This document shows, piece by piece, positions 12,113 through 60,651 of a stretch of DNA of 64,000 nt. Positions within the stretch are counted from its first letter, which is position 1. Every line of letters starts with the position of its first letter. The notes under the pieces are model-generated. The model had not been told where the DNA came from, searched no databases, and was given only the letters and a program-made list of their open reading frames with translations. This stretch comes from a virus (taxonomy: Duplodnaviria > Caudoviricetes), in IMG/VR virus record IMGVR_UViG_3300005739_000025. One strand, written 5' to 3'. The translations under genes and the position numbers were made by a program.

Positions 12113-12813
12113 TGGTAATTTTAGATCCAATAAATCATGTATATTTAGACGCTGATAACAATCAATACGAAAGCGTTACTAGATTTATTAATAAGTTTGT
12201 TCCTCAGTTTGACTTCGAGAATAAAAGTAAGAAGTACGCAGCAAAATATGGTCTAGATGTGGAGGAAGTACGAGAATCCTGGAAACAAAAGAATAAGCAA
12301 AGCACAGATTTTGGAACTCTTATACACGAACAAATAGAAAATAGACTTCTCAAGAAAGAATTCGATTATGAAAGAATTATTGAAGATGTAGCTTTTGAAA
12401 TAGAAGAAAGTTTTGACGGTGAATATCTATTAGAACATACTTTATGGGATACAAAAAATAAAATAGCAGGTACATCAGATTTAATAGTAGATAAAGAAAA
12501 TACATTTAGTATTGTAGATTTTAAAACTAACAAACAGATAAAGTACACAAATGATTTTGAAGATAAGTTTCTTCTTAAACCTGTAGATCATCTACCTAAT
12601 AGTGAGTACTTTAAATATGCCTTACAGCTATCTTTTTACGCTTATTTGTATAATCTTAAAACAAACAAACAATTAGATAGATTATGTTTTTACTGGCTTA
12701 AAAGAAAAAATAATAGTTACGAGAATATGGATAAAGCTAGTTGGATTAGACATAACGTACCATATCTTAAAGAAGAAGTGGGGAAGCTTCTAGAATATGG
12801 AAAAAAGAATTAG
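12112..12813 (+). CDS. PD-(D/E)XK exonuclease (Cas4/lambda-exo-like)
   Basis: SVT, GTLIHE, E..L, IAGTSDL, IVDFKT, QLSFY motifs. Confidence 0.85.
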   Translation: MVILDPINHVYLDADNNQYESVTRFINKFVPQFDFENKSKKYAAKYGLDVEEVRESWKQKNKQSTDFGTLIHEQIENRLLKKEFDYERIIEDVAFEIEESFDGEYLLEHTLWDTKNKIAGTSDLIVDKENTFSIVDFKTNKQIKYTNDFEDKFLLKPVDHLPNSEYFKYALQLSFYAYLYNLKTNKQLDRLCFYWLKRKNNSYENMDKASWIRHNVPYLKEEVGKLLEYGKKN

Positions 12814-42414: not shown

Positions 42415-42603
42415 ATGTATATTGTTAAAGTAGGAAAAGAAGAAGGGGCTCTTGAAAAAGCTCTTAAAAGGTTGAAATCTAAGATAATAGAAGATGGTCT
42501 TATGGAAGAATTATATAGACTTAGAGCTTTTGAGACCCCCAAGGAAAAGAAAAAGCGAAAACTTAGAATTAGATCTAAAGTATTTACTCGAAATAAATCT
42601 TGA
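42415..42603 (+). CDS. rpsU: Ribosomal protein bS21
   Basis: LEKALKRLKSK...GLMEEL...AFETPKEKKKRK. Confidence 0.85.
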   Translation: MYIVKVGKEEGALEKALKRLKSKIIEDGLMEELYRLRAFETPKEKKKRKLRIRSKVFTRNKS

Positions 42604-44102: not shown

Positions 44103-44123
44103 GTTCTAACGTTGTTTACTTGG

Positions 44124-44156
44124 AACCCCGGCCTGTATAACAAGCCGGGGTTTTTT
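44124..44156 (+). terminator. Intrinsic terminator
   Basis: AACCCCGGC...GCCGGGGTT followed by a T-tract. Confidence 0.9.
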
Positions 44157-45882: not shown

Positions 45883-46068
45883 ATGAAATTCGAAAACGCA
45901 TTGCTTATTTTTATAGCCATTTATATTATTATAGATTCTATTCTTTCAGTACTAGATTCTAATAAGATTAATAATCTTCAAACACAAATCGATGAGCTTA
46001 AAATTATTGTTGATCAGAAGTTTTTATCTTCGATGGTTTTAGACACATACAATTTAATGCCCCGATAG
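45883..46068 (+). CDS. Small membrane-anchored protein; stop codon inside tRNA-Ile(TAT)
   Basis: N-terminal TM helix; GTTCC-N2-TATACT promoter upstream. Confidence 0.55.
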   Translation: MKFENALLIFIAIYIIIDSILSVLDSNKINNLQTQIDELKIIVDQKFLSSMVLDTYNLMPR

Positions 46069-46151
46069 TTTAATGGCAGAACACAGGTCTTATACACCTG
46101 AAGCTGGGAGACGCTGGCGTAGTGAAGGTTCGAGTCCTTCTCGGGGTACCA
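46059..46151 (+). tRNA. trnI: tRNA-Ile(TAT) with long variable arm
   Basis: GCCCCGA/TCGGGGT-ACCA, CAGGT-CTTATAC-ACCTG, 23-nt extra arm. Confidence 0.82.
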
Positions 46152-46157
46152 AAAATT

Positions 46158-46298
46158 ATGGCACAGAAAACTAAAAATAACATTATAGGAAAAAGTTCTT
46201 TGGGAACTCATTACACTCAAGCAAAGAACGTTCGTCAGTTCTATAATAAGAATACTAGAGCTCAACGTTCTGATGCTGGTAAACGTAGGAAACCTTAA
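46158..46298 (+). CDS. 46-aa basic RSDAG-motif peptide 1
   Basis: MAQKTK...RAQRSDAGKRRKP. Confidence 0.7.
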   Translation: MAQKTKNNIIGKSSLGTHYTQAKNVRQFYNKNTRAQRSDAGKRRKP

Positions 46299-46299
46299 T

Positions 46300-46434
46300 A
46301 TGGCTAAAAATAAAATTGTAGGCGATTGGGGTGCATGGAGTGCTGGTAATAAGCAGACAGCGGCTAGCCTTAGAAAAGTTGGTATTAAAGCTCGTGCGCG
46401 AAGGTCTGACGCTGGTAAAAAGAGAAAGCCTTAA
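46300..46434 (+). CDS. 44-aa basic RSDAG-motif peptide 2
   Basis: MAKNK...RARRSDAGKKRKP. Confidence 0.7.
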   Translation: MAKNKIVGDWGAWSAGNKQTAASLRKVGIKARARRSDAGKKRKP

Positions 46435-46435
46435 T

Positions 46436-46573
46436 ATGATTATTCAAGCCTGGGGACATAAAAACGCATCTAAAAATGCCGCAAAACAAGCTAGAGCATT
46501 TGGTTATAAGGCGCGTGCAAAAAGATCTGATGCAGGTTACAAGCGCATGCGCAAGCCTAGACCGCCAAAATAA
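46436..46573 (+). CDS. 45-aa basic RSDAG-motif peptide 3
   Basis: MIIQAWG...RAKRSDAGYKRMRKP. Confidence 0.7.
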   Translation: MIIQAWGHKNASKNAAKQARAFGYKARAKRSDAGYKRMRKPRPPK

Positions 46574-46579
46574 AATTAC

Positions 46580-46652
46580 GGCCTTGTAGCTCAATGGTTA
46601 GAGCAGTCGGCTCATAATCGATTGGTTGTAGGTTCGAATCCTACCGGGGCCA
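46580..46652 (+). tRNA. trnI: tRNA-Ile2(CAT) (lysidine type; Met not excluded)
   Basis: GGCCTTG/CGGGGCC-A body resembling ileX, loop CTCATAA. Confidence 0.85.
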
Positions 46653-46656
46653 CAAT

Positions 46657-46777
46657 TTGGCTAGGCGCATGCTCCAAAGGATCCAAATGCTACGGAGACT
46701 CCCGCGCTAGAGACGATGCAATGTTTGCGCAAACAACATCTAATTCTAGAGGAAGGAACTTAAGACCTTCTAGCCAA
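46657..46777 (+). ncRNA. Unassigned structured RNA
   Basis: TTGGCTAG/CTAGCCAA enclosing GCAT/ATGC, TGTTTG/CAAACA and GAAGG/CCTTC stems. Confidence 0.5.
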
Positions 46778-46783
46778 TATTTT

Positions 46784-46857
46784 TTCTTACTTGCATACTC
46801 GGGGTCTTCCATGTAATATTGGAGCTAGTCTAACCCATAAGGTGTTGCAAGTAAGAA
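46784..46857 (+). ncRNA. Unassigned structured RNA
   Basis: Perfect 12-bp TTCTTACTTGCA/TGCAAGTAAGAA closing stem. Confidence 0.45.
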
Positions 46858-46868
46858 CTTTTTTCGTA

Positions 46869-46940
46869 GGGTCGGTAGCTTAATGGTAAAGCAGCTGGCT
46901 TTTAACCAGTTGAGTGCGAGTTCGACTCTCGCCCGACCCA
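46869..46940 (+). tRNA. trnK: tRNA-Lys(TTT)
   Basis: GGGTCGG/CCGACCC, loop CTTTTAA. Confidence 0.93.
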
Positions 46941-46983
46941 TACCAATATCCATATAAGGCACTACTTAAGAATAAATAATAGT

Positions 46984-47400
46984 ATGAAACTTCATAATAA
47001 ACAAAAAGGTAATATAGGAGAAGCTGCTACTGCTCTTTTTTTGCTCAAAAAAGGCTACCCAGTGTTTAAAGAGCTAGGAGATTTATCTAAAGTAGATTTG
47101 TTGACAATTATTAATAACAGATGTTATAAAATACAAGTTAAAAATGCATCACGCGAAACTAACAAAGGTTCATTTACTTTTAATACTATTAAATATGGAC
47201 CAAATTATTCTTACAAATATAAAAAAGAAGATGTAGATATTTTTGCAGTCTATATTTCAACCATAGATGAATTAGTATTTTTGGGTTGGGGTGATTTAAA
47301 AAATGATACCCTTAATATTAGATATAAAAAAAGCTTGAACAACCAAAGTAAAAATATAAACTGGTATGAAGATTTTAAAAATTTTGATAGATTAATTTAA
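46984..47400 (+). CDS. PD-(D/E)XK homing-type endonuclease (PDDEXK_5-like)
   Basis: KGNIGE...VDL...YKIQVK...YKKEDVDIFAVY. Confidence 0.8.
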   Translation: MKLHNKQKGNIGEAATALFLLKKGYPVFKELGDLSKVDLLTIINNRCYKIQVKNASRETNKGSFTFNTIKYGPNYSYKYKKEDVDIFAVYISTIDELVFLGWGDLKNDTLNIRYKKSLNNQSKNINWYEDFKNFDRLI

Positions 47401-47435
47401 GGTATTGGTTCTGGGTTCGAGTCCCACCCGTTCCA
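47396..47435 (+). pseudogene. Orphan 3' half of a tRNA (anticodon to acceptor)
   Basis: TTTAA-GGTAT-TGGTT-CTGGG-TTCGAGT-CCCAC-CCGTTCC-A. Confidence 0.7.
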
Positions 47436-47446
47436 TAAATATTCAT

Positions 47447-47839
47447 ATGCCAGTTTGTACATCTTTTGATTTTATATCAGTAAAAAGCGCAGGACAAGGA
47501 TTGTTTAATGGATACTATGTTCCTATTTCCGGATTTAAAACTACAGAAGATGGGCTAGAGAGATATAGTCATTATGTTTTAAATTTCTTTCAAAATGAAG
47601 GATATCCTAGATTAGAAGTAACAAATTTATCAGGTACACACTATGTGTGGGCTTTAAAATCTGACCCATCTACAATAGTTTATAGAACAAATGCAGTTAC
47701 AACTTCTACAACTATTTCCCAATGTCCTAATGGTCTAACCTGGATGTGGGGCCCCAATACTTCTTCAGGTTCGATACCTTCCTCTTCAGGTAAAACAAAT
47801 AAAAGTATTGCAGCAGAAATGGCAGCTCTCATTTCTTAG
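47447..47839 (+). CDS. Hypothetical late protein
   Basis: Start reassigned to ATG 47447 behind CATAAATA. Confidence 0.55.
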   Translation: MPVCTSFDFISVKSAGQGLFNGYYVPISGFKTTEDGLERYSHYVLNFFQNEGYPRLEVTNLSGTHYVWALKSDPSTIVYRTNAVTTSTTISQCPNGLTWMWGPNTSSGSIPSSSGKTNKSIAAEMAALIS

Positions 47840-47873
47840 TTGATAAAATACCAATTTCTTTTAAACTAATTTT

Positions 47874-48158
47874 ATGATTTATGAAAATTATGGCATTGTT
47901 AGAACTGATGCCCCAGATCAACAGCTTATCAATTTAATTGAGTCCATGAGCAAATGTGTTAGAGAGACCGAAGGACACTTTTCTTACAGCAGATGGAATA
48001 GACTCGTGGAGATTTATTATTATCTTAGATATGGTCTTTATGGAGATGCATGGATTAAGATTAATGATTTAAGAGATGACTTAAGATGGAGAATTCCCGA
48101 GGACGTCTATCACACATTAAAAGACATTTGCAAGGGAATGAATGTTCGAATAGCATAA
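47874..48158 (+). CDS. Hypothetical protein
   Basis: 94-aa ORF. Confidence 0.55.
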   Translation: MIYENYGIVRTDAPDQQLINLIESMSKCVRETEGHFSYSRWNRLVEIYYYLRYGLYGDAWIKINDLRDDLRWRIPEDVYHTLKDICKGMNVRIA

Positions 48159-48164
48159 TTTAAA

Positions 48165-48239
48165 ACCTAGGTAGCTCAATGGTAGAGCTAGCGGCTGTTA
48201 ACCGCTCGGTTGTAGGTTCGAATCCTACCCTAGGTGCCA
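48165..48239 (+). tRNA. trnN: tRNA-Asn(GTT)
   Basis: AGCGG-CTGTTAA-CCGCT, G-CCA end. Confidence 0.93.
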
Positions 48240-48243
48240 TTAC

Positions 48244-48319
48244 GCGTTGGTAGCTCAGTGGATAGAGCAGTAGCCTTCTAAGCTATTGGTCGCAGGTTCG
48301 ATCCCTGCCCGACGCGCCA
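48244..48319 (+). tRNA. trnR: tRNA-Arg(TCT)
   Basis: GTAGC-CTTCTAA-GCTAT, G-CCA end. Confidence 0.95.
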
Positions 48320-48723
48320 TTTTTACTTGCTCTTTAATGAAGAGCTTATAAACTAAAATATATGAATAAATTAATTACCTTTCCAGATGAAAGCAAGTTT
48401 GAACTTATTTTTTGCGTGGAACATCCCAATCAATCGTTTCATGTTAAATATAAAGATAACAATATAGTTCAAGAGCTATTTGTTCCAAAAGATTTTATTT
48501 CTAATGAAAAGTAATTGGAAGGATATTAATATAGGAGACTTTTTTATTCCTGATTTAGTCTTAAACGGAGATACATTTTTGTATCAAAAGATTGACGAAC
48601 AAAAGCATAATGGCTATAATTGTATTTTGTTAAATACCGGGGAGCTTTGCAATATTTTTATTAATCCAACCTTACAAGAGCATTTTGTTAAAGTCGAAGT
48701 AACATTTAATTTAAGGGAGTTTA

Positions 48724-48870
48724 ATGGCTAGTAGAATAATTAAAGGATCAAATCATAGATACGAGACTGCTTCGTGGCTTAGAAAGCAAATCAATGCTGG
48801 TGTACCTAAGGGTTGTAAGATAAAGTTTAGAGCACAACGCAAAGACGCAGGTACCAAGCGAAGTAAATAA
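48724..48870 (+). CDS. 48-aa basic RKDAG-motif peptide 4
   Basis: MASRIIKG...RAQRKDAGTKRSK. Confidence 0.65.
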   Translation: MASRIIKGSNHRYETASWLRKQINAGVPKGCKIKFRAQRKDAGTKRSK

Positions 48871-48876
48871 TATTAC

Positions 48877-48948
48877 GTCGCCATCGTCTAACGGTTAGGA
48901 CACATGGTTTTCATCCATGCAATCGGAGTTCGATTCTCCGTGGCGATG
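48877..48948 (+). tRNA. trnE: tRNA-Glu(TTC)
   Basis: CATGG-TTTTCAT-CCATG. Confidence 0.93.
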
Positions 48949-48992
48949 CTTATAGCTTGCACTATTCTTATCATATATTAAAATACTGGTCT

Positions 48993-49532
48993 ATGATTAA
49001 GAACATTATATATAGTGTTTTGGCAGCTGTAGCTATGGTTACCGTAGCTGTTGCCGGAACTGATTACAAAAAGAATGTTATTGAGGAAGACTGTAACTTT
49101 CGCAATAACGAGTGGCAAATTGATGCATATGGTGCTGGTGCCTTCTATAAGAACGGCCGTCCCGGTTGGGGTGGAGGAATCGGTGTTAACTATATCTTTG
49201 CCCGGTACTTTGGTATCGGAGTCGAGCAAGATTTAGTTGGACGTAATAGTACTGGTTCTAGTGCTTATGCTGAATGGGCTACCCTTGGTAACCTATTCCT
49301 CCGTTATCCAATCTGTTCTTTCAATCTCGCCCCCTACGCGATGGTAGGTGGGGGCGCGATTTACGGAACAAACAAAGGTATCGGCGTTGGGACAGTCGGT
49401 GGAGGCCTTGAGTGGCGCTTTGATGAAAACATTAGTGTTTTCTCAGACGCTCGTTGGCTTTATACCGGCAATGGAAACAACGACCACAGCGGTGCTATTC
49501 TTGGTCGCGCTGGTGTTCGCGTTGCATTCTAA
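48993..49532 (+). CDS. Outer-membrane beta-barrel protein (Verrucomicrobia-style)
   Basis: Signal peptide, AGTDYKK, alternating beta strands, C-terminal GVRVAF. Confidence 0.8.
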   Translation: MIKNIIYSVLAAVAMVTVAVAGTDYKKNVIEEDCNFRNNEWQIDAYGAGAFYKNGRPGWGGGIGVNYIFARYFGIGVEQDLVGRNSTGSSAYAEWATLGNLFLRYPICSFNLAPYAMVGGGAIYGTNKGIGVGTVGGGLEWRFDENISVFSDARWLYTGNGNNDHSGAILGRAGVRVAF

Positions 49533-52587: not shown

Positions 52588-53169
52588 ATGGAACAAGATC
52601 CTATAACAGGGTTAAAATATAAATTTGTAAAACCTAGCGAGTTCAATTACGCTTATCATGTAGCTGGATCTTTATTTTATAAGATATCAAAAGCGCCAGG
52701 CAATAACACATTTGTTTCTTTTAATGAAGTGCACCCCTCTAGAGATAAAGAATTGCAAGATATATTAAGAAAAGATTTAGGTTACGGTATTCATACAAAA
52801 GGGTTTAATACAACTAATCTTGGAGCTCAAGAGATTAAATCATTGGAAAATTCTAAAGACTGGAACAACTATTATGTAAAGAGTACTCAAGATCTAATAG
52901 ATAAAGGTTTTTTATCTAAAACAAATTATAAAAACCATGGGTGGTCTATTGTGTATCCAGATACCATTCAGACTATTGCACCTTCTGCTCCACCTTGGGT
53001 TAAGGATAAATTAAACATTCTAAAACAAGCTAGTAAAACAAAAATTAATAGAAATATTCTTTCAATGTTTTTAGAGCGTTTATGCGAATTTATGATGCTT
53101 CATGAAGCATGGACTAATTTAAGACCTAAAACGAAAGAAGTGTTTAAAGACATTTTATCTGAGCTATGA
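52588..53169 (+). CDS. Hypothetical protein with shared C-terminal tag
   Basis: ends LRPKTKEVFKDILSEL. Confidence 0.7.
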   Translation: MEQDPITGLKYKFVKPSEFNYAYHVAGSLFYKISKAPGNNTFVSFNEVHPSRDKELQDILRKDLGYGIHTKGFNTTNLGAQEIKSLENSKDWNNYYVKSTQDLIDKGFLSKTNYKNHGWSIVYPDTIQTIAPSAPPWVKDKLNILKQASKTKINRNILSMFLERLCEFMMLHEAWTNLRPKTKEVFKDILSEL

Positions 53170-53579
53170 AACAGAAAGCGCCAAAGATGGAACTTATTCC
53201 AATTACGTCTGAGAACTACGAAAGAGTTTCTTGGCCAGCGCCTCATGGTACATCTTTTAAATTAACAAAAGATAAAAAATATGGAGTTACAAAGTTTACA
53301 GAGATGGGTCCTCTCGGTAAAGATTATATGCTAAAAAACGGGTACAGAAGAATATATTACTTTGATGGAGATGATGTATTAAAGTACTATGTCTATAATT
53401 CTATTCCCCTACCCCACCCCATTGATGCTAAAACAATGTATGAAATTGTTGATAAAAATACCGTTCCTAAAGCTTTAAGAAACGAAATTATGATTGCGTA
53501 TGTTATAGATAACTTAGGAAGACTTCTAAAGCCTAAAACTAGAGAGCATTTTGGGGATATTTTTAGCGAATTATCTTGA
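53166..53579 (+). CDS. Hypothetical protein with shared C-terminal tag
   Basis: ends LKPKTREHFGDIFSELS. Confidence 0.7.
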   Translation: MKQKAPKMELIPITSENYERVSWPAPHGTSFKLTKDKKYGVTKFTEMGPLGKDYMLKNGYRRIYYFDGDDVLKYYVYNSIPLPHPIDAKTMYEIVDKNTVPKALRNEIMIAYVIDNLGRLLKPKTREHFGDIFSELS

Positions 53580-54554
53580 CTAAATTCTGGGTTCCTTCAT
53601 AATAGGCACAATGAAAGATTACCTTTTATTGTTTATTGAATGTGTCTACCATCTTTTTAATGATAATAGACCCTTTAAAAAGAAAATTGAGCCATCATTA
53701 TTGGCAGAAAATATCTCATGGTTTAATAATTGTTCTTGGATCGAACAATTGATTGCATTTAAACAAATTTCCCGTTATTATACTTTTAAATGACATACGA
53801 AGAACAAATAGAACAGGTGCAAAGCGCTCTCAATTATCTCATTGCAGAGGGTATTGCTGTAGAAGATGGAAAAGGTCTCTATAGGCTTAAAACTGATAAA
53901 GAACTTAAACTAGAAATAGAGAGTCTTATTAATGAGTAATAAAGAAAAGATTATTAGAATTGGTACCTGGTTAACTATTTTTACTTTTTCTGTTGCCTTT
54001 TGGGTAGTTATAACTTATTATTCTTATCACTTTGTAAGAAATCTTATAATGTCTAACTAATATGAATAAAGAAACAATCGATTTGTTCAAACAATACGTG
54101 GTAGCAACATTAGATGAGCCTAACGGTATTTCTAAAGAAGCATATTCTTCGCTAATTAACCTTATGCAAGTTAATAGAGATTTTGCTCAAGAAATGCATG
54201 ATGTTGTAGATAAAATTGACTCACATGATAATAGATACTTCCTATTGGAAGATAACGAAGAGGAGTTTTCTTACGAGGAATGATCAAGCTTTCAAATATT
54301 AATGAGGTAGCAGATAAGCTAAAAGAACTTAAAGAGGCTGTTGCTGTTTGCCAGAAAATAGAAGATCAAGTTTCGTGGGCTTGTGACTTTACAACTTATA
54401 GAACTATATCTGATGCCTTAGAGCCTATTTATGAGGCTGTAGATAGTGCAAAAGATTCAATTAATCAAGAAATAAATTATATTGAAGATCGTTTAGAAGA
54501 TTACAAGTGCAAACTTGATATTTTTGAACACGAAAATAAGATAGAAGTAAACGA

Positions 54555-55634
54555 TTGAGTATATGTCTTAACATGATTGTTAAGGATGAATCTAAAAACA
54601 TCCTTAGATGTTTAGATTCAGTCTCACCCTATATAAACTATTGGGTAATTTGCGATACAGGTTCAAGCGATAATACAGTTGAAACTATTAAGAACTACTT
54701 TAACCAGAAAAATATTCCAGGAGAGATTCATGGTCATGGTTGGGTAAATTTTGGAGTTAATAGAAATTTAGCTTTAGAGTTAGCAAAAGATAAAGCGGAT
54801 TATATATTGCTTTGTGATGCTGATATGGAAATGGTAGTTAATCAACCAGATTTCTTTTCTAATATTAATAGCTATGGTTTTGATGAAGCTACTATTATTC
54901 AGGAATCTGATCATTTATCATATCACAACATAAGAATTGTAAGCGGTAAGAAAGATTTCAATTATGTTGGTCCTACTCATGAGTATATAACCGCTAAATT
55001 CAAAGATGTAAACAGATTAGATATAGATAAATCTGTACTATATTTCAAGGATCATGCTTCAGGATTTAATAGAACAAACAAATTTCAAAGAGACATAGAG
55101 TTGTTGGAAAACGAGCTGCTAAAGTTTCCATCCAATCAAAGATATAGATTTTACCTGGCCCAAAGCTACAGAGATAACAACGATAAAGATAACGCCATTG
55201 CCAATTACAAAAAGGTTCTTTATTGTAATGGCTATGTTCAAGAGAAGTACATATCTTGTTTAAATTTAGGTAGATTATATAAAGATAAAGGAGAAAAAGA
55301 ATTAGCAGTCTTTTACTACTTAAAATCTATAGAGTTTGATAGTTCTAGAATAGAGTGTATGGTAGAGGCTACAACTATTCTTAGAGAATTAAATCAACAT
55401 AATTTGGTTTGTTTGCTCTATGATAGATATAAAAATTACTCTAAAAATATACAGCACGCATTATTTCTAGAGCCAAAACTATATAATAACGAGCTTGAAT
55501 TTAATTTTTCAATTTCAGCCTTTTATGTTAATAGAAAGGAAGAAGGTTTACAAGCTATTAAAAAAATACTTGAATCTCCAGATAGTTCAGATCATATTAG
55601 ATTTTTAAGTGAAAAAAACTTGAAATTTTTTTAA
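54555..55634 (+). CDS. Family-2 glycosyltransferase with TPR repeats
   Basis: ICLNMIVKDE, ICDTGSSD, W.NFG.NRN, DAD, HEY, FYLAQSY. Confidence 0.9.
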   Translation: MSICLNMIVKDESKNILRCLDSVSPYINYWVICDTGSSDNTVETIKNYFNQKNIPGEIHGHGWVNFGVNRNLALELAKDKADYILLCDADMEMVVNQPDFFSNINSYGFDEATIIQESDHLSYHNIRIVSGKKDFNYVGPTHEYITAKFKDVNRLDIDKSVLYFKDHASGFNRTNKFQRDIELLENELLKFPSNQRYRFYLAQSYRDNNDKDNAIANYKKVLYCNGYVQEKYISCLNLGRLYKDKGEKELAVFYYLKSIEFDSSRIECMVEATTILRELNQHNLVCLLYDRYKNYSKNIQHALFLEPKLYNNELEFNFSISAFYVNRKEEGLQAIKKILESPDSSDHIRFLSEKNLKFF

Positions 55635-55677
55635 AATTTTAGTTGAGGTTCCTTAGAAAGACTATATATTAATAGAA

Positions 55678-56063
55678 GTTCTTTGACATTTAAGGGGGTA
55701 GCAGATAGCCGGTTGAGTCGTGCACTGCTTTAAACTGATCTTGACTCGATCAAGCCTTCTTAACAACGGTAAGGTATGGTGTTTAACGTCCCTAACAAAA
55801 TGTATCACCTTATAAATGGTATGCGAACTCTACCACTCTTAAGATCTAAAGAGTCTTCACAGTAAGATAAGCCGCAACAGGCTAAAAAATAGAGCGTGTC
55901 GGTTCTAGGTAAGTACCAAGCCGAAGACTATAGATGGTCAAAAACCTATGTAAAATACGGTTAGGTGTTCTTCGAGTGAGTGTATAAAAATATGCTAGGC
56001 ATTACTCACTCGATACCAGATAAGGCGCAACTTAATCTGGTCCGAAGTGCGATAAAAACACCC
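55678..56063 (+). ncRNA. Large (~370-nt) unassigned structured ncRNA with its own promoter and boxA-like leader
   Basis: No ORF; many stems, e.g. TCGAGTGAGT/ACTCACTCGA, ACCAGAT/ATCTGGT, GGTGTT/AACACC, AGCC/GGCT. Confidence 0.65.
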
Positions 56064-57213
56064 AATTTTCCATGCATAGATTAGCTTATTCAATTCTAGC
56101 GTTTTTATTTGGATTCTGGTTATGTGAATTCATAATTAGTTTATTCTTGAAGAAAGATAAAATTCCTTTAGAATAAGAATATGAAAGTAAAACCAGCTTA
56201 CATGTCATTAATGATTTCCTTTGCACTATTTGCTATTTTAGTCTATCTTGTTAGTAGACTTTAATATGACTCAGGAAGAAAAAATATATCAACTTCGCGC
56301 TCTTCTCTCTTACATTAATATGAGAGTAGGGGAGTTTTATAGTATGGGACTCTACAATAACAACCCGACTAGAAAAGAACTATTCTTTATTCTTAAAGAT
56401 ATAAAAAAAACATTAGAACAGACAAGTAATTAATTGCATTTTTATTAAAGTTCCTACATACTTTTAACAATGAAAGAGCTAAACAAATTAAGGGAAGAAG
56501 TAGCTGATCAAGAATTACATAAATATGATTTTTATGGGTACGTAGAGGATTCCAGTAATTGGGTAAAAGATGGAGATGTGTGGTCCTGTAAGGTCTATCT
56601 TGAAAATGAAGATGAGTATGAAGAAGAGGGAACTACTATTCCTTATTCCTTTACAGTATTTTTCGAAGAAGGTACCACCGAGGTTGAGTCTGTAGAATCA
56701 GAGTGTTTAGCTTAATGGCAAAATATAAAAAAGATTTTCAAACTATAATCTACAAAGGTTATAAAATAGAACAAGTTATTAATCACAATCCTTATCTTTT
56801 CTATGGAGGATATGGTTATCCTGAGAATCACCCTAAGCGTAGATATATGAAACCTATATACGCTGTTCAATGGGCTGATAAGAAGGAAGGTTATTGTTAC
56901 GAAACATACTACTATACTTCTTTAGTTGCCGCAAAGAGAATGATAAATTTTACTGTTAATCGCAATAAGGTCCCTGCATAATATTAACAATGACGAAATA
57001 CGATATTAATTCCCAAGTGGAAGAGTACTTTGGTACATTTGCTGCTGAACCTGCTAATGAAGACATGGTCAGTCTTAGCAGCTATTCTATTGAAGAATAC
57101 GAAGAGTATATTTCAAAAGAATCCCAAGAAAATAGTGAAATTTAATTTAGTTGCTGTTCCTATAAGGTTCCTGTACAATATTTACATAATCAAGAAAGGA
57201 GGTGAAACAAATA

Positions 57214-57546
57214 ATGGAAAACGTTATCAAAGTCGAGCGTAAGAACGGTAAGATCGTTCGTCAGACCGAAGGTAAACGCCGTGGACGCCCTAGTGGTTCT
57301 GGCAACCCTTCGCTTAAGTTGACCTGCTTGGTCACGGGTAAGTCCCGTGCTACCAATCAGAAGTATCTCCAGGCTAAGGCTGATCGTTTGGGCGTTACTG
57401 TTGACGAAATCGTTAACAACTATGTCTCTAAGGACGGTCTCAAGCAGATGGATACTTTCAATCACGCTAACAAAGAGTTGCTACGTCGTATCAATGGTGG
57501 AACTCGCATTAGCTCTGAGAAGGTCGCTGTTGCTAAAGCTGCTTAA
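57214..57546 (+). CDS. AT-hook DNA-binding early protein
   Basis: SD AAGGAGGTGA; KRRGRPS; host-like codon usage. Confidence 0.65.
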   Translation: MENVIKVERKNGKIVRQTEGKRRGRPSGSGNPSLKLTCLVTGKSRATNQKYLQAKADRLGVTVDEIVNNYVSKDGLKQMDTFNHANKELLRRINGGTRISSEKVAVAKAA

Positions 57547-58045
57547 TCAATAGAGCGTCTCCAGTTCAATCCTGCAGACGCTTCTATCTTATGAAAAAAC
57601 AAATTCAAAAACAATTAAAGTTTGCTTCTAAACTCTTACAAGAAATTTCCCGGGAACATAAAAAGGGAAACTACTATAGGTTTGGTTATTTGGCATATGA
57701 TGTTCAATTAAAAGAGTACGAAAGACTTAAAGCATTATATGAAAAGCATCGCTAGTATTCTTTGTTTACTGATTACTGGTTGTGCTACCAATCCAGTAGG
57801 AGCGGGATTTCAAAAAGAGTTTCCTTATAAATTTAGACCATATCCTGAATCTCCAGACATTTATAATTTCTCTCTTAATAATATTATCGATTTAACTCCA
57901 TACATATGGTTCCCACAAAAAGATACGCCTATATTTTCACCATTTTAATATTAGTGGTTCTAGTATCGTGTTGCTCAATAAATAATTCAAATAACAACAT
58001 GGACAAAGAGGTCCGTAAGATGTTTGAATTTATTGAACGACCACT

Positions 58046-58402
58046 ATGCGAAAAGAAGCCTTCGTTAAAAGATTAGAAAGCGGAAGACTAGTTTTTAGTT
58101 TTTACCCTCCTTTAAAAGACCTAGGAGGTAATCATTATTTTGATAAGCTTATCGTTGATTTAAACGATAAAAAGGTATATAAAGAGCTAGGAAAAACCAA
58201 AGTAGGTTATTTTTCTGAAGCTAGAGTTATAGAAGACGATGGAAGCGTGGGTAGATCTCTACTTCAAATAACTCATAGTACCCCATTTTCCTTTCAAGAG
58301 TTTGTAGATTTTCTACCTAAAGTTAAAGGTGAATATAAAGTTGTAGAGCTTAAACCTAAGACCGAAGAACACTTCGGAGATATATTGAGAGGACTATCGT
58401 AA
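58046..58402 (+). CDS. Hypothetical protein with shared C-terminal tag
   Basis: ends LKPKTEEHFGDILRGLS. Confidence 0.7.
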   Translation: MRKEAFVKRLESGRLVFSFYPPLKDLGGNHYFDKLIVDLNDKKVYKELGKTKVGYFSEARVIEDDGSVGRSLLQITHSTPFSFQEFVDFLPKVKGEYKVVELKPKTEEHFGDILRGLS

Positions 58403-58803
58403 TGAAACTTAAAGGAAAAGCATATTTTGTAAAAAAATTCTCAAATAATATATTTGGAAGCGATGAAGCTGATAGAATTATAAAATCTTCCAAAAATGTT
58501 AAAGGTAAAAGAAATATAGCACTCTATAAAGTATCTCCCCCCATTAAAGGACATCAATATGTTGTAGTTAGTAGTGTTAAAATAGAGATACCTATGAACA
58601 AAAAAGAAAGTCATATTATTCAAGAGACAATGGTATTTTTTTCTAATCATAAAGGGGATGTGGAATTTGGTCAAGAGTTTAAAACCTTTTACGGCTTCTT
58701 ACCCCATGATAAAGTGTTAATGGATATCGGCTATGAGCTTGTAGAGTTTAAGCTTAAACCAGAAACAGAAAAATATTTTGGAGACATTTTAAGAGAACTA
58801 TGA
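58402..58803 (+). CDS. Hypothetical protein with shared C-terminal tag
   Basis: ends LKPETEKYFGDILREL. Confidence 0.7.
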   Translation: MKLKGKAYFVKKFSNNIFGSDEADRIIKSSKNVKGKRNIALYKVSPPIKGHQYVVVSSVKIEIPMNKKESHIIQETMVFFSNHKGDVEFGQEFKTFYGFLPHDKVLMDIGYELVEFKLKPETEKYFGDILREL

Positions 58804-59222
58804 GTAAAAAATTAGAAGATGGTTATTTTTTAGACGATGGAAGAACGGGTATTGTTTATAAACCTATAAAATTAGGAGATTATGATGTATTTTTTAGTAA
58901 CGGTCTATTTTTTACTTTAGTAAAAGATGAAATAGTTACAGGTTACAAGTTTTACTCGTTAATGCACATAACCGCAAAAAAACATGGATTAAGTATAAAG
59001 TCTGTTCCAAAATGGCCCAAAGAAACGTTAATGTGGGGTCATGACTTTTTAAATAAGTTTGATCAAAATTTACCATATTTGTGTATAGTTAAACCTTGGA
59101 CGGTTCCGAGAAAATATTTTGATACAGGAGCTGCTCAATACTATAGTTTATACAAAAAGCCTTCTAAATTAATGAAACCTAAAACAAGAAAACATTTCGG
59201 AGACATAATAGATAATTTATGA
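58800..59222 (+). CDS. Hypothetical protein with shared C-terminal tag
   Basis: ends MKPKTRKHFGDIIDNL. Confidence 0.7.
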   Translation: MSKKLEDGYFLDDGRTGIVYKPIKLGDYDVFFSNGLFFTLVKDEIVTGYKFYSLMHITAKKHGLSIKSVPKWPKETLMWGHDFLNKFDQNLPYLCIVKPWTVPRKYFDTGAAQYYSLYKKPSKLMKPKTRKHFGDIIDNL

Positions 59223-59332
59223 GTGATAAAGTAGAAGAGATTAAAGAAGCTATTTCTAAACTAACTATTGAAGAGGTAAATGAATTAGCCGAAAAGCTAA
59301 AAGATATACTTAAACTAGATGAAGACATTTAA
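59219..59332 (+). CDS. 37-aa peptide resembling the N-terminal dimerisation domain of ribosomal protein bL12
   Basis: MSDKVEEIKEAISKLTIEEVNELAEKLKDILKLDEDI; ATGA overlaps on both sides. Confidence 0.6.
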   Translation: MSDKVEEIKEAISKLTIEEVNELAEKLKDILKLDEDI

Positions 59333-59780
59333 GACATTTATAACCGAGAATGTGATACAAATGAGTGCTACTAGAGCTACTAAAGAGTATCCTTTTGTTT
59401 CTGAGCTAGACGATCAAAGTATAAAAGAGCTTTTATTAATTAGAAAGCCTGAAGACATTAAATCGGTATCTCTTGAAGCTATGTGGATGGATGATAGTGT
59501 AGAGTGTTACGGTATTATATTAAATGGAGTAGTTATGGGATTGTGGTGGTACGGACCTCATATTAAGGGATATCTACAAAAATTTAACGATAAACTAGAC
59601 GCTAAGAACAGAGCATTTCTACAAAAAGAAGTATTTGAAATTTTAGAAAATGAAAAACAGAGAATATACGATGAAGCAGGAGATGAAAGATTAGATAGAA
59701 TAGAAAAAGAAATAGAAATGCTTGATAAAATGAAACCTAAAACAAAAGAGTATTTCTATGACATAATGAAAGAACTATGA
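59319..59780 (+). CDS. Hypothetical protein with N-terminal MKTFKTFITE propeptide and shared C-terminal tag
   Basis: ends MKPKTKEYFYDIMKEL. Confidence 0.7.
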   Translation: MKTFKTFITENVIQMSATRATKEYPFVSELDDQSIKELLLIRKPEDIKSVSLEAMWMDDSVECYGIILNGVVMGLWWYGPHIKGYLQKFNDKLDAKNRAFLQKEVFEILENEKQRIYDEAGDERLDRIEKEIEMLDKMKPKTKEYFYDIMKEL

Positions 59781-60223
59781 CAAGAGGTAAAGCTATTTTA
59801 ATTAAAGATCTTACCCCTAGAAGTAAGGAAGATTTTCAAAGAGTGGTAAAAAGTGTTCCTAGATTTGATTATCTTTTTAGTAAGTTTGAGGGTCTTAATA
59901 TAGATCATATGGAGCTTAAAGTGTATAAGCTTAACCCAAAGCTATTTGTTGATAATGTTATTAAAGATTGTGAATATGTATTAATAGCTACAATATTCAT
60001 ATCAAAACATAATGAAAACAGATACAAGTATGAGTATAAAGAATCATCTGTTTATAAGAGTAATAAAAATGGAAAGATTTTAAACACCGATGAAATTTAT
60101 ATGACCCATAGAAACACTGATCATGAAGATGTGTTAAATGATATGGGAAGAGAGTGGTATGATCTAATAAAGCTTAAGCCTAAAACATCAGAACACTTTG
60201 GAGATATATTAATGAATATATGA
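59777..60223 (+). CDS. Hypothetical protein with shared C-terminal tag
   Basis: ends LKPKTSEHFGDILMNI. Confidence 0.7.
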   Translation: MTRGKAILIKDLTPRSKEDFQRVVKSVPRFDYLFSKFEGLNIDHMELKVYKLNPKLFVDNVIKDCEYVLIATIFISKHNENRYKYEYKESSVYKSNKNGKILNTDEIYMTHRNTDHEDVLNDMGREWYDLIKLKPKTSEHFGDILMNI

Positions 60224-60651
60224 ACAAATACTTTCAAGCTTTAAATAGGGGTTGGGACGTAGATGAAGATTCAGGGTTTAAATTTAAACATATAAATCCT
60301 TATGAATATGACATGATATATTTTCCATATATTCAAGGTTTTTATAAAATTATAAAGAATAAAAAATTTAAAATGTCTTTCGAGCCTCCTTGGTTTATAG
60401 CGCCTGTTAAGCTTTCTGAATCTTTATTAAATGATGCTAAAAAATGGGAAAAAGCTCATTTAATTCTTCTTAGAGAAATTAACCCAGATACGTTATGGGA
60501 GGATCTTTATATGATAGCTGATAAGTCAAGCACCCCCAACCATTTAAAATCTCAAATACTATCTGCTTCTTTACGTCCTAACTTTATAAAAAGAATGAAG
60601 CCAGAGACTCAAAAACATTTTAAAGATATTTTTATAGGATTAGAAGATTAG
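60220..60651 (+). CDS. Hypothetical protein with shared C-terminal tag
   Basis: ends MKPETQKHFKDIFIGLED. Confidence 0.7.
   Translation: MNKYFQALNRGWDVDEDSGFKFKHINPYEYDMIYFPYIQGFYKIIKNKKFKMSFEPPWFIAPVKLSESLLNDAKKWEKAHLILLREINPDTLWEDLYMIADKSSTPNHLKSQILSASLRPNFIKRMKPETQKHFKDIFIGLED

Follow-up and report, generated by a model that had tools for sequence, protein, structure and literature searches.

[quoted passage not shown] The DBD1-DBD2 linker of Tn7 TnsB also lies in the minor groove (PMC9308760). AT-hooks and extended AT-hooks (HMGA; PMC4615771, PMC11354804), as well as the AT-hook-like grips of H-NS and Lsr2, are short Arg/Gly peptides that bind the minor groove in an extended form. Some AT-hook-type peptides also bind RNA, and extended AT-hooks bind RNA better than DNA (PMC4615771). 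Here we describe four phage genes, A to D, that belong to an undescribed family of microproteins of ~45 residues ending in a hook of the transposase type; literature searches for the motif and for the family found no description.

Four microprotein genes in the tRNA array of a T4-like phage

The window, by which we mean the whole 64,000-nucleotide stretch that was analysed, has a GC content of 33.6%, contains 21 tRNAs and encodes a gp20-type portal; its source is a large T4-like phage. The preliminary description had reported four small basic ORFs with a shared C-terminal motif among these tRNAs, and our analysis agrees with it in coordinates, junctions and tRNA adjacency (Table 1). The four peptides (44-48 aa, pI 11.5-11.9) each contain 12-14 Lys and Arg residues and 1-2 acidic residues, and all carry R..R(S/K)DAG..R. 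A six-frame search of the window gave exactly four matches to the pattern RA.R.DAG, and 300 residue shuffles gave none; the looser pattern R.D.G..R has four matches compared to 0.33 expected. Codon comparison of the four copies bore out the claim that the motif differs synonymously between them. Both tandem junctions (A/B and B/C) read TAA-T-ATG, and each of the four genes ends in TAA, 1-6 nt ahead of the next gene or tRNA. A 244,006-nt contig encodes protein C without a single difference, and all three tandem genes are called in an identical JGI contig.

Table 1. Microprotein genes and neighbouring features, in window coordinates.
Feature	Position	Strand	Remarks
Microprotein A	46158-46298	+	46 aa, pI 11.5; hook codons 46257-46289
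Microprotein B	46300-46434	+	44 aa, pI 11.9; Trp-rich loop subtype; hook codons 46393-46425
Microprotein C	46436-46573	+	45 aa, pI 11.8; longer Lys/Arg/Pro tail; hook codons 46514-46546
Microprotein D	48724-48870	+	48 aa, pI 11.5; longer helix-loop insert; RKDAG variant; hook codons 48829-48861
tRNA-Ile(UAU)	46059-46151	+	long variable arm; A starts 6 nt downstream
tRNA-Met(CAU)	46580-46653	+	C ends 6 nt upstream
tRNA-Glu(UUC)	48877-48949	+	D ends 6 nt upstream
bS21, phage-encoded ribosomal protein	42415-42603	+	Pfam PF01165, 37.7 bits, above cut-off; TIGR00030
Terminator hairpin	44122-44154		z -3.1, folded stretch; ahead of the tRNA array holding A-D
boxA-like words	44160 and 48329

A conserved accessory family with many subtypes

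Profile searches yielded 31 relatives and then 134, giving at least 134 stand-alone homologues, nearly all of 41-52 aa. A search for longer forms returned three matches, all of them mis-called starts running through tRNA genes, and revealed no fused homologues. Two further matches were rejected as artefacts, a repeat protein (P0045) and a TypA GTPase in a cluster list (P0140). No relatives were found among 50,697 records of isolate phages, in plasmids or in GTDB genomes, and the family had no significant match in Pfam, PHROGs or NCBIfam, no match among the defence proteins of PADLOC and none in PDB sequence searches. An ESM Atlas feature search returned unnamed clusters only, at a score of 0.81, which is chance level. 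Public gene calls also miss members, leaving two of three uncalled in one relative (L004) and one of two in another (L009). At 42 distinct loci, a single copy is present in 32, two copies in seven and three in two, and the window is the only locus with four. The family was absent from all 16 clade fragments picked through other genes, which are 12-57% complete and biased to the portal region. Since it was found neither in these fragments nor in isolates, plasmids or GTDB genomes, the family looks accessory rather than core, a suggestive observation.

One subtype carries the JGI label 'ribosomal protein S26'. A Y-C-V-S word in one subtype resembles eS26 (PF01283), but the match, at E=0.039 in 2 of 110 sequences, falls well short of the Pfam cut-off, and the zinc-binding cysteines typical of eS26 are missing, there being no conserved Cys column in the 110 members. 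Likenesses seen by eye to bL33, bL34, eL37 and the tail of uL2 had no profile support. This is thus a widespread phage microprotein family that is missing from family libraries, often missed by gene callers and mislabelled S26 by one pipeline.

Genuine coding by the ORFs is supported by the size of the family and by its substitution pattern. Ten of 11 orthologue pairs show pS of 0.57-0.90 compared to pN of 0.05-0.23, and the eleventh, a close pair, shows 0.22 compared to 0.01. The values for genes of the window are 0.68 and 0.05 for A and 0.74 and 0.13 for B, each compared with its orthologue in L004, a 237-kb relative, and 0.75 and 0.11 for D. The family is therefore under strong purifying selection. 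In a family tree, which was built on few columns and does not resolve deep branches, A forms its own subtype with P0006 and P0084 (support 98/91), C forms another (100/99) and D falls in a third (99/81), whereas B lies in a weakly resolved group. Because A, C and D fall into different subtypes, each well supported, whose orthologues are found in other phages, the tandem is an assembly of old subtypes; the four window copies are old and distinct rather than fresh duplicates. Gene order varies as well, from A-B-C in the window to B-A in L004, and orthologues of D precede tRNA-Glu in both L004 and L007. A single gene-sharing network connects the window with each of the 34 family loci tested, and for 25 of these the link is direct. 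On these comparative grounds, A to D are shown to be conserved coding genes of an accessory family with many subtypes, carried by one clade of large T4-like phages.

The predicted fold and the C-terminal hook

A column profile of 110 family sequences revealed that R25, R32, R35, D37 and G39 are invariant, that A21, S36, A38, K41 and R42 each occur in at least 90%, and that K3, N4, I6, K18 and G28 are kept in 73-87%, whereas residues 8-17 vary by subtype. The N-termini, previously described as divergent, are so in part: K-N-x-I-I near the start and the K..A...R stripe of the helix are kept in the family. The protein ends 4-5 residues past G39 in 101 of the 110 sequences. The AlphaFold2 model of B has a strand at residues 5-7, a helix at 14-26 and a strand at 31-33, followed by an extended tail, and two alignments gave the same fold with mean pLDDT of 81 and 85 (85 for B), predicting a small strand-helix-strand head with an extended tail. 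In the model, K18, A21 and R25 lie on one face of the helix and hydrophobic residues at 20, 24 and 27 on another. Fold searches with the 44-residue model (PDB, VIA-wide, Atlas, BFVD) returned generic strand-helix-strand pieces only (Z up to 3.8, E above 2); for so small a unit these searches are uninformative, indicating neither kinship nor a new fold.

The comparison of the motif with the R..RSD.G-type hook of transposase minor-groove linkers, made in the preliminary description, stands: R35, D37, G39 and R42 of the peptides match the spacing of R99 to R106 in ShTnsB, both having R-x-D-x-G-x-x-R, with the arginines seven apart, after a helix. Six cyanobacterial Mu-like transposases keep R.D.G..R, five of them with the upstream Arg as well. 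Their hooks score -1.6 to 14.9 bits on a matrix of the peptide hooks, compared to -11.3 for the 99.9th percentile of 18,670 window 11-mers, a comparison that is partly circular because the six were retrieved with a motif-containing query. In contrast to Mu-like and TnsB transposases, the peptides, at 41-52 aa, have neither HTH domains nor an RNase H-fold DDE domain, and the hook forms the end of a free protein of 45 residues whose head is strand-helix-strand. Around the peptide genes, neither repeats nor transposase genes were identified. The 8-11 shared residues fit inheritance and convergence alike, and the resemblance to TnsB may be convergent. The family also differs from AT-hooks, in that its 110-member profile shows S-D-A-G rather than a G-R-P core and its invariant Asp is not part of AT-hooks, and from H-NS and Lsr2, whose silencer-type oligomerisation domain the peptides lack. 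It would resemble the TnsB minor-groove linker or the AT-hook in its working while being a member of neither.

When viral contigs were scanned for the motif, the same hook turned up in many basic proteins that are unrelated to one another, some of them low-complexity proteins of large viruses. These included an HNH endonuclease (L112) and a viral protein with 26% K+R in which the hook stands beside two GRP AT-hook-like motifs (L085). The hook therefore seems to be a portable means of gripping nucleic acid, with one solved example, which is on DNA, and these findings suggest that a transposase minor-groove hook also serves as a free-standing nucleic-acid-binding motif across viruses.

We favor, at a probability of roughly one half, the reading that A to D are paralogous stand-alone accessory DNA-binding microproteins. 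The tail R-x-x-R-S-D-A-G-K-K-R would run along the minor groove as the TnsB linker does, with R35 and R42 contacting bases, and the helix stripe K18-A21-R25 together with K3 would hold the DNA backbone. The subtype-specific loop, residues 8-17, would set the DNA site or partner preferred by each paralog. More tentatively, the peptides could be made abundantly early or in the middle of infection, transcribed either along with the tRNAs or from a host-type promoter of their own, and could occupy AT-rich DNA, which would protect the phage genome against DNA-binding silencers or nucleases of the host, or adjust transcription. The tRNA array would then be a strongly expressed insertion site rather than the target of the peptides. 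Neither an operator-like repeat nor a target site was found. Several observations count against a DNA ligand: AT-hook-type peptides can prefer RNA (PMC4615771), the hook is short and basic, tRNA adjacency is enriched, and the phage has genes for translation, bS21 among them. In addition, one relative keeps an intact head with the hook missing.

tRNA proximity, expression signals and alternative readings

A tRNA lies within 50 nt of the family genes at 11 of the 42 distinct loci and within 500 nt at 16, compared to a background of 4-8% of positions within 500 nt in three long records. At 23 of the 42 loci there is no tRNA in the available DNA, which for 11 of the 23 extends at least 3 kb on both sides, and searches of whole records revealed copies whose nearest tRNA is 16 kb, 50 kb or more away. 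The identity of the adjoining tRNA also varies (Ile, Leu, Arg, Glu, Val, Gly or Met). The enrichment is real but loose, and the related phages that contribute to it are not independent. A TATAAT-like box stands 4-13 nt before the ATG at 15 of 26 tRNA-free loci, 10 of which have a TTG -35 too, and at one of 16 tRNA-adjacent loci; AT-rich DNA matches this promoter pattern easily, and the tRNA-adjacent loci that served as the control have a higher GC content. Upstream signals are mostly of the host type, TTG/TATAAT, rather than late TATAAATA, and Shine-Dalgarno-like words are present at two of the 42 loci. From the TATAAT-like boxes at tRNA-free loci and the scarcity of Shine-Dalgarno-like words, we infer that the common feature is a start codon near the 5' end of the transcript, made by a promoter or by tRNA processing.

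The preliminary description had suggested from the tRNA location that the peptides may bind RNA or ribosomes. Adjacency to tRNAs is indeed enriched, and it is so for several subtypes, but the step from location to ligand is weak given the 23 loci without a tRNA, the distant copies and the changing neighbour. A role of this kind, in which the basic helix and the hook would enter rRNA or tRNA like the extension of a ribosomal protein and, jointly with the phage tRNAs and bS21, bias translation or protect it, is possible at perhaps half the weight of DNA binding. It would fit the placement of all four window copies in a tRNA array that follows a terminator hairpin and boxA-like words, the presence of bS21 in the window and in three of five family-bearing genomes, a size and charge like those of small ribosomal proteins, and the RNA preference of extended AT-hooks noted above. 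Against it, the sole solved example of the hook is on DNA, and no ribosomal-protein match was significant, with the eS26 value given above, E=0.77 for eL40 and a probability of 0.3% for bS21. Phage bS21 (PMC9723584) is itself small and basic, and the peptides occur in phages that carry it, but bS21 here is encoded by a gene of its own, which lies outside the structural-gene block described in PMC9723584. The ArfA and BrfA rescue peptides are similarly short and basic, whereas every member of our family ends at a stop codon of its own ahead of the tRNA (no non-stop layout), and there was no profile match. A fuller form of the translation reading is somewhat more doubtful still: the paralogs would be a diversified panel of ribosome- or tRNA-binding proteins, co-controlled with the tRNAs, made from short-leader mRNAs freed from the tRNA precursor and acting with bS21 to remodel or protect host translation. 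If true, phages would possess a new class of translation factor, based on a hook that has until now been known from proteins that bind DNA.

The variable loop could instead recognise a host protein, such as a defence sensor, a nuclease or RNA polymerase, with the basic tail blocking an acidic surface. Such counter-defence or host takeover is unlikely in our estimation. It would suit an accessory family of variable copy number that is missing from the 16 clade fragments, in which old subtypes differ in the loop and gene order is shuffled, and T-even tRNA regions are known to carry and amplify counter-defence genes (PMC13096335); a PD-(D/E)XK endonuclease also lies 400 nt from C. However, the invariant residues, which are those of the hook and basic ones present in every subtype, suit a shared nucleic-acid ligand better than different protein targets, and no family library gave a match. 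Less probable again is a place in the virion core, where the peptides would neutralise packaged DNA in the manner of protamines. The peptides are very small and basic, as that role would require, and the hook recurs in basic low-complexity proteins of large viruses. T4 encodes small basic internal proteins near its tRNA genes, and IPI-IPIII and other small basic T-even genes resemble our family in being variable accessory genes in such a position. The peptides differ from IPI-IPIII in their strictly conserved C-terminal hook; neither sequence comparison nor PHROGs gave a match, a capsid-targeting leader of the T4 type is lacking, and A to D do not carry the C-terminal tag common to eight ORFs at 52588-60651. 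Host-type rather than late upstream signals and a patchy rather than core distribution also argue against a virion role. That the ORFs arose by chance or are untranslated tRNA spacers, for which the two Shine-Dalgarno-like sites among 42 loci might be cited, is very improbable in view of pS of 0.6-0.9 compared to pN of 0.05-0.2, starts and stops kept in more than 100 sequences, and a confidently predicted fold.

The preferred DNA-binding reading, if true, would provide a 45-residue sequence-selective DNA binder with natural subtypes, and the ribosomal alternative a new ribosome-binding phage factor, either of them relevant to host takeover. The peptides are short enough for chemical synthesis, so the choice between DNA and RNA is answerable without culturing the phage.

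The phages that bear the family are uncultured, T4-like and large, about 220-245 kb, often with bS21; CheckV-implied sizes of relatives are ~220 kb, and three of them share a 60% identical portal. All family records are metagenomic, and sample labels suggest that most are of lake origin. A search for the host through bS21 found no match in GTDB contigs; the phage bS21 may resemble that of Verrucomicrobia.

The C-terminal hook with and without its head

The motif R-K-x-R-S-D-(A/K)-G-K-x-R, which corresponds to the hook of the microprotein family, was seen across many unrelated basic viral proteins in a motif scan of viral contigs (L067-L144). Some of these proteins carry the hook twice, and searches of the hook-bearing basic proteins from these contigs against Pfam returned no match. 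A motif model of its own may be warranted for the hook. The family member encoded in L151 retains an intact head and lacks the hook, stopping soon past R32 with a different tail. This protein, which makes a handy control, represents one of two things: an allele in decay or a naturally hookless variant.

Clusters of the P0063 subtype of the family are labelled 'ribosomal protein S26' by JGI. This label is false and could inflate tallies of viral ribosomal proteins.

Features of the window and its relatives
Feature	Sequence	Position	Remark
bS21	window	42415-42603	
tRNA-Ile, UAU anticodon, long variable arm	window	46059-46151	
GC-richer non-coding stretch	window	46655-46778	3' of tRNA-Met
Long hairpin	window	46784-46857	tRNA-Met/tRNA-Lys interval; z -2.6
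PD-(D/E)XK endonuclease	window	46984-47436	PF11645, E 6e-19
Secreted-looking protein	window	48957-49532	immediately after tRNA-Glu
tmRNA	L061	8651-9116	~900 nt upstream of L061's microprotein copy
Hookless family member	L151 (record G005)	12331-12426	- strand

RNA elements and protein genes of the tRNA region

Comparison with relatives revealed both kept and missing elements. The tRNA-Ile(UAU) with its long variable arm is kept in L003, L004 and L007 (gene length 93-95 nt), and the long hairpin, for which Rfam gave no match, is found at the same location in the 237-kb relative L004. Missing from L004 are the endonuclease insert, whose gene is directly followed in the window by an orphan tRNA 3' half, and, at the corresponding place, the GC-richer stretch. 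The termini of this stretch are able to pair and it ends with CCA; the part tested folded no more strongly than shuffles did.

The secreted-looking protein had no match in family-library searches. With a C-terminal Phe and a high content of Gly and aromatic residues, it resembles an outer-membrane barrel.

Whereas the phage bS21 of PMC9723584 occupies a structural-block position, bS21 lies close to the tRNA region in this clade (window, L004 and L148-L150), with a RadA-like ATPase adjoining it in the window and L004.

Non-coding stretches beside stand-alone copies

In L018, L047 and L054, stand-alone microprotein copies are adjoined by non-coding stretches containing G, C, T and A runs as well as CCTATATAGG-like palindromes, which are possibly genome-end or origin features.
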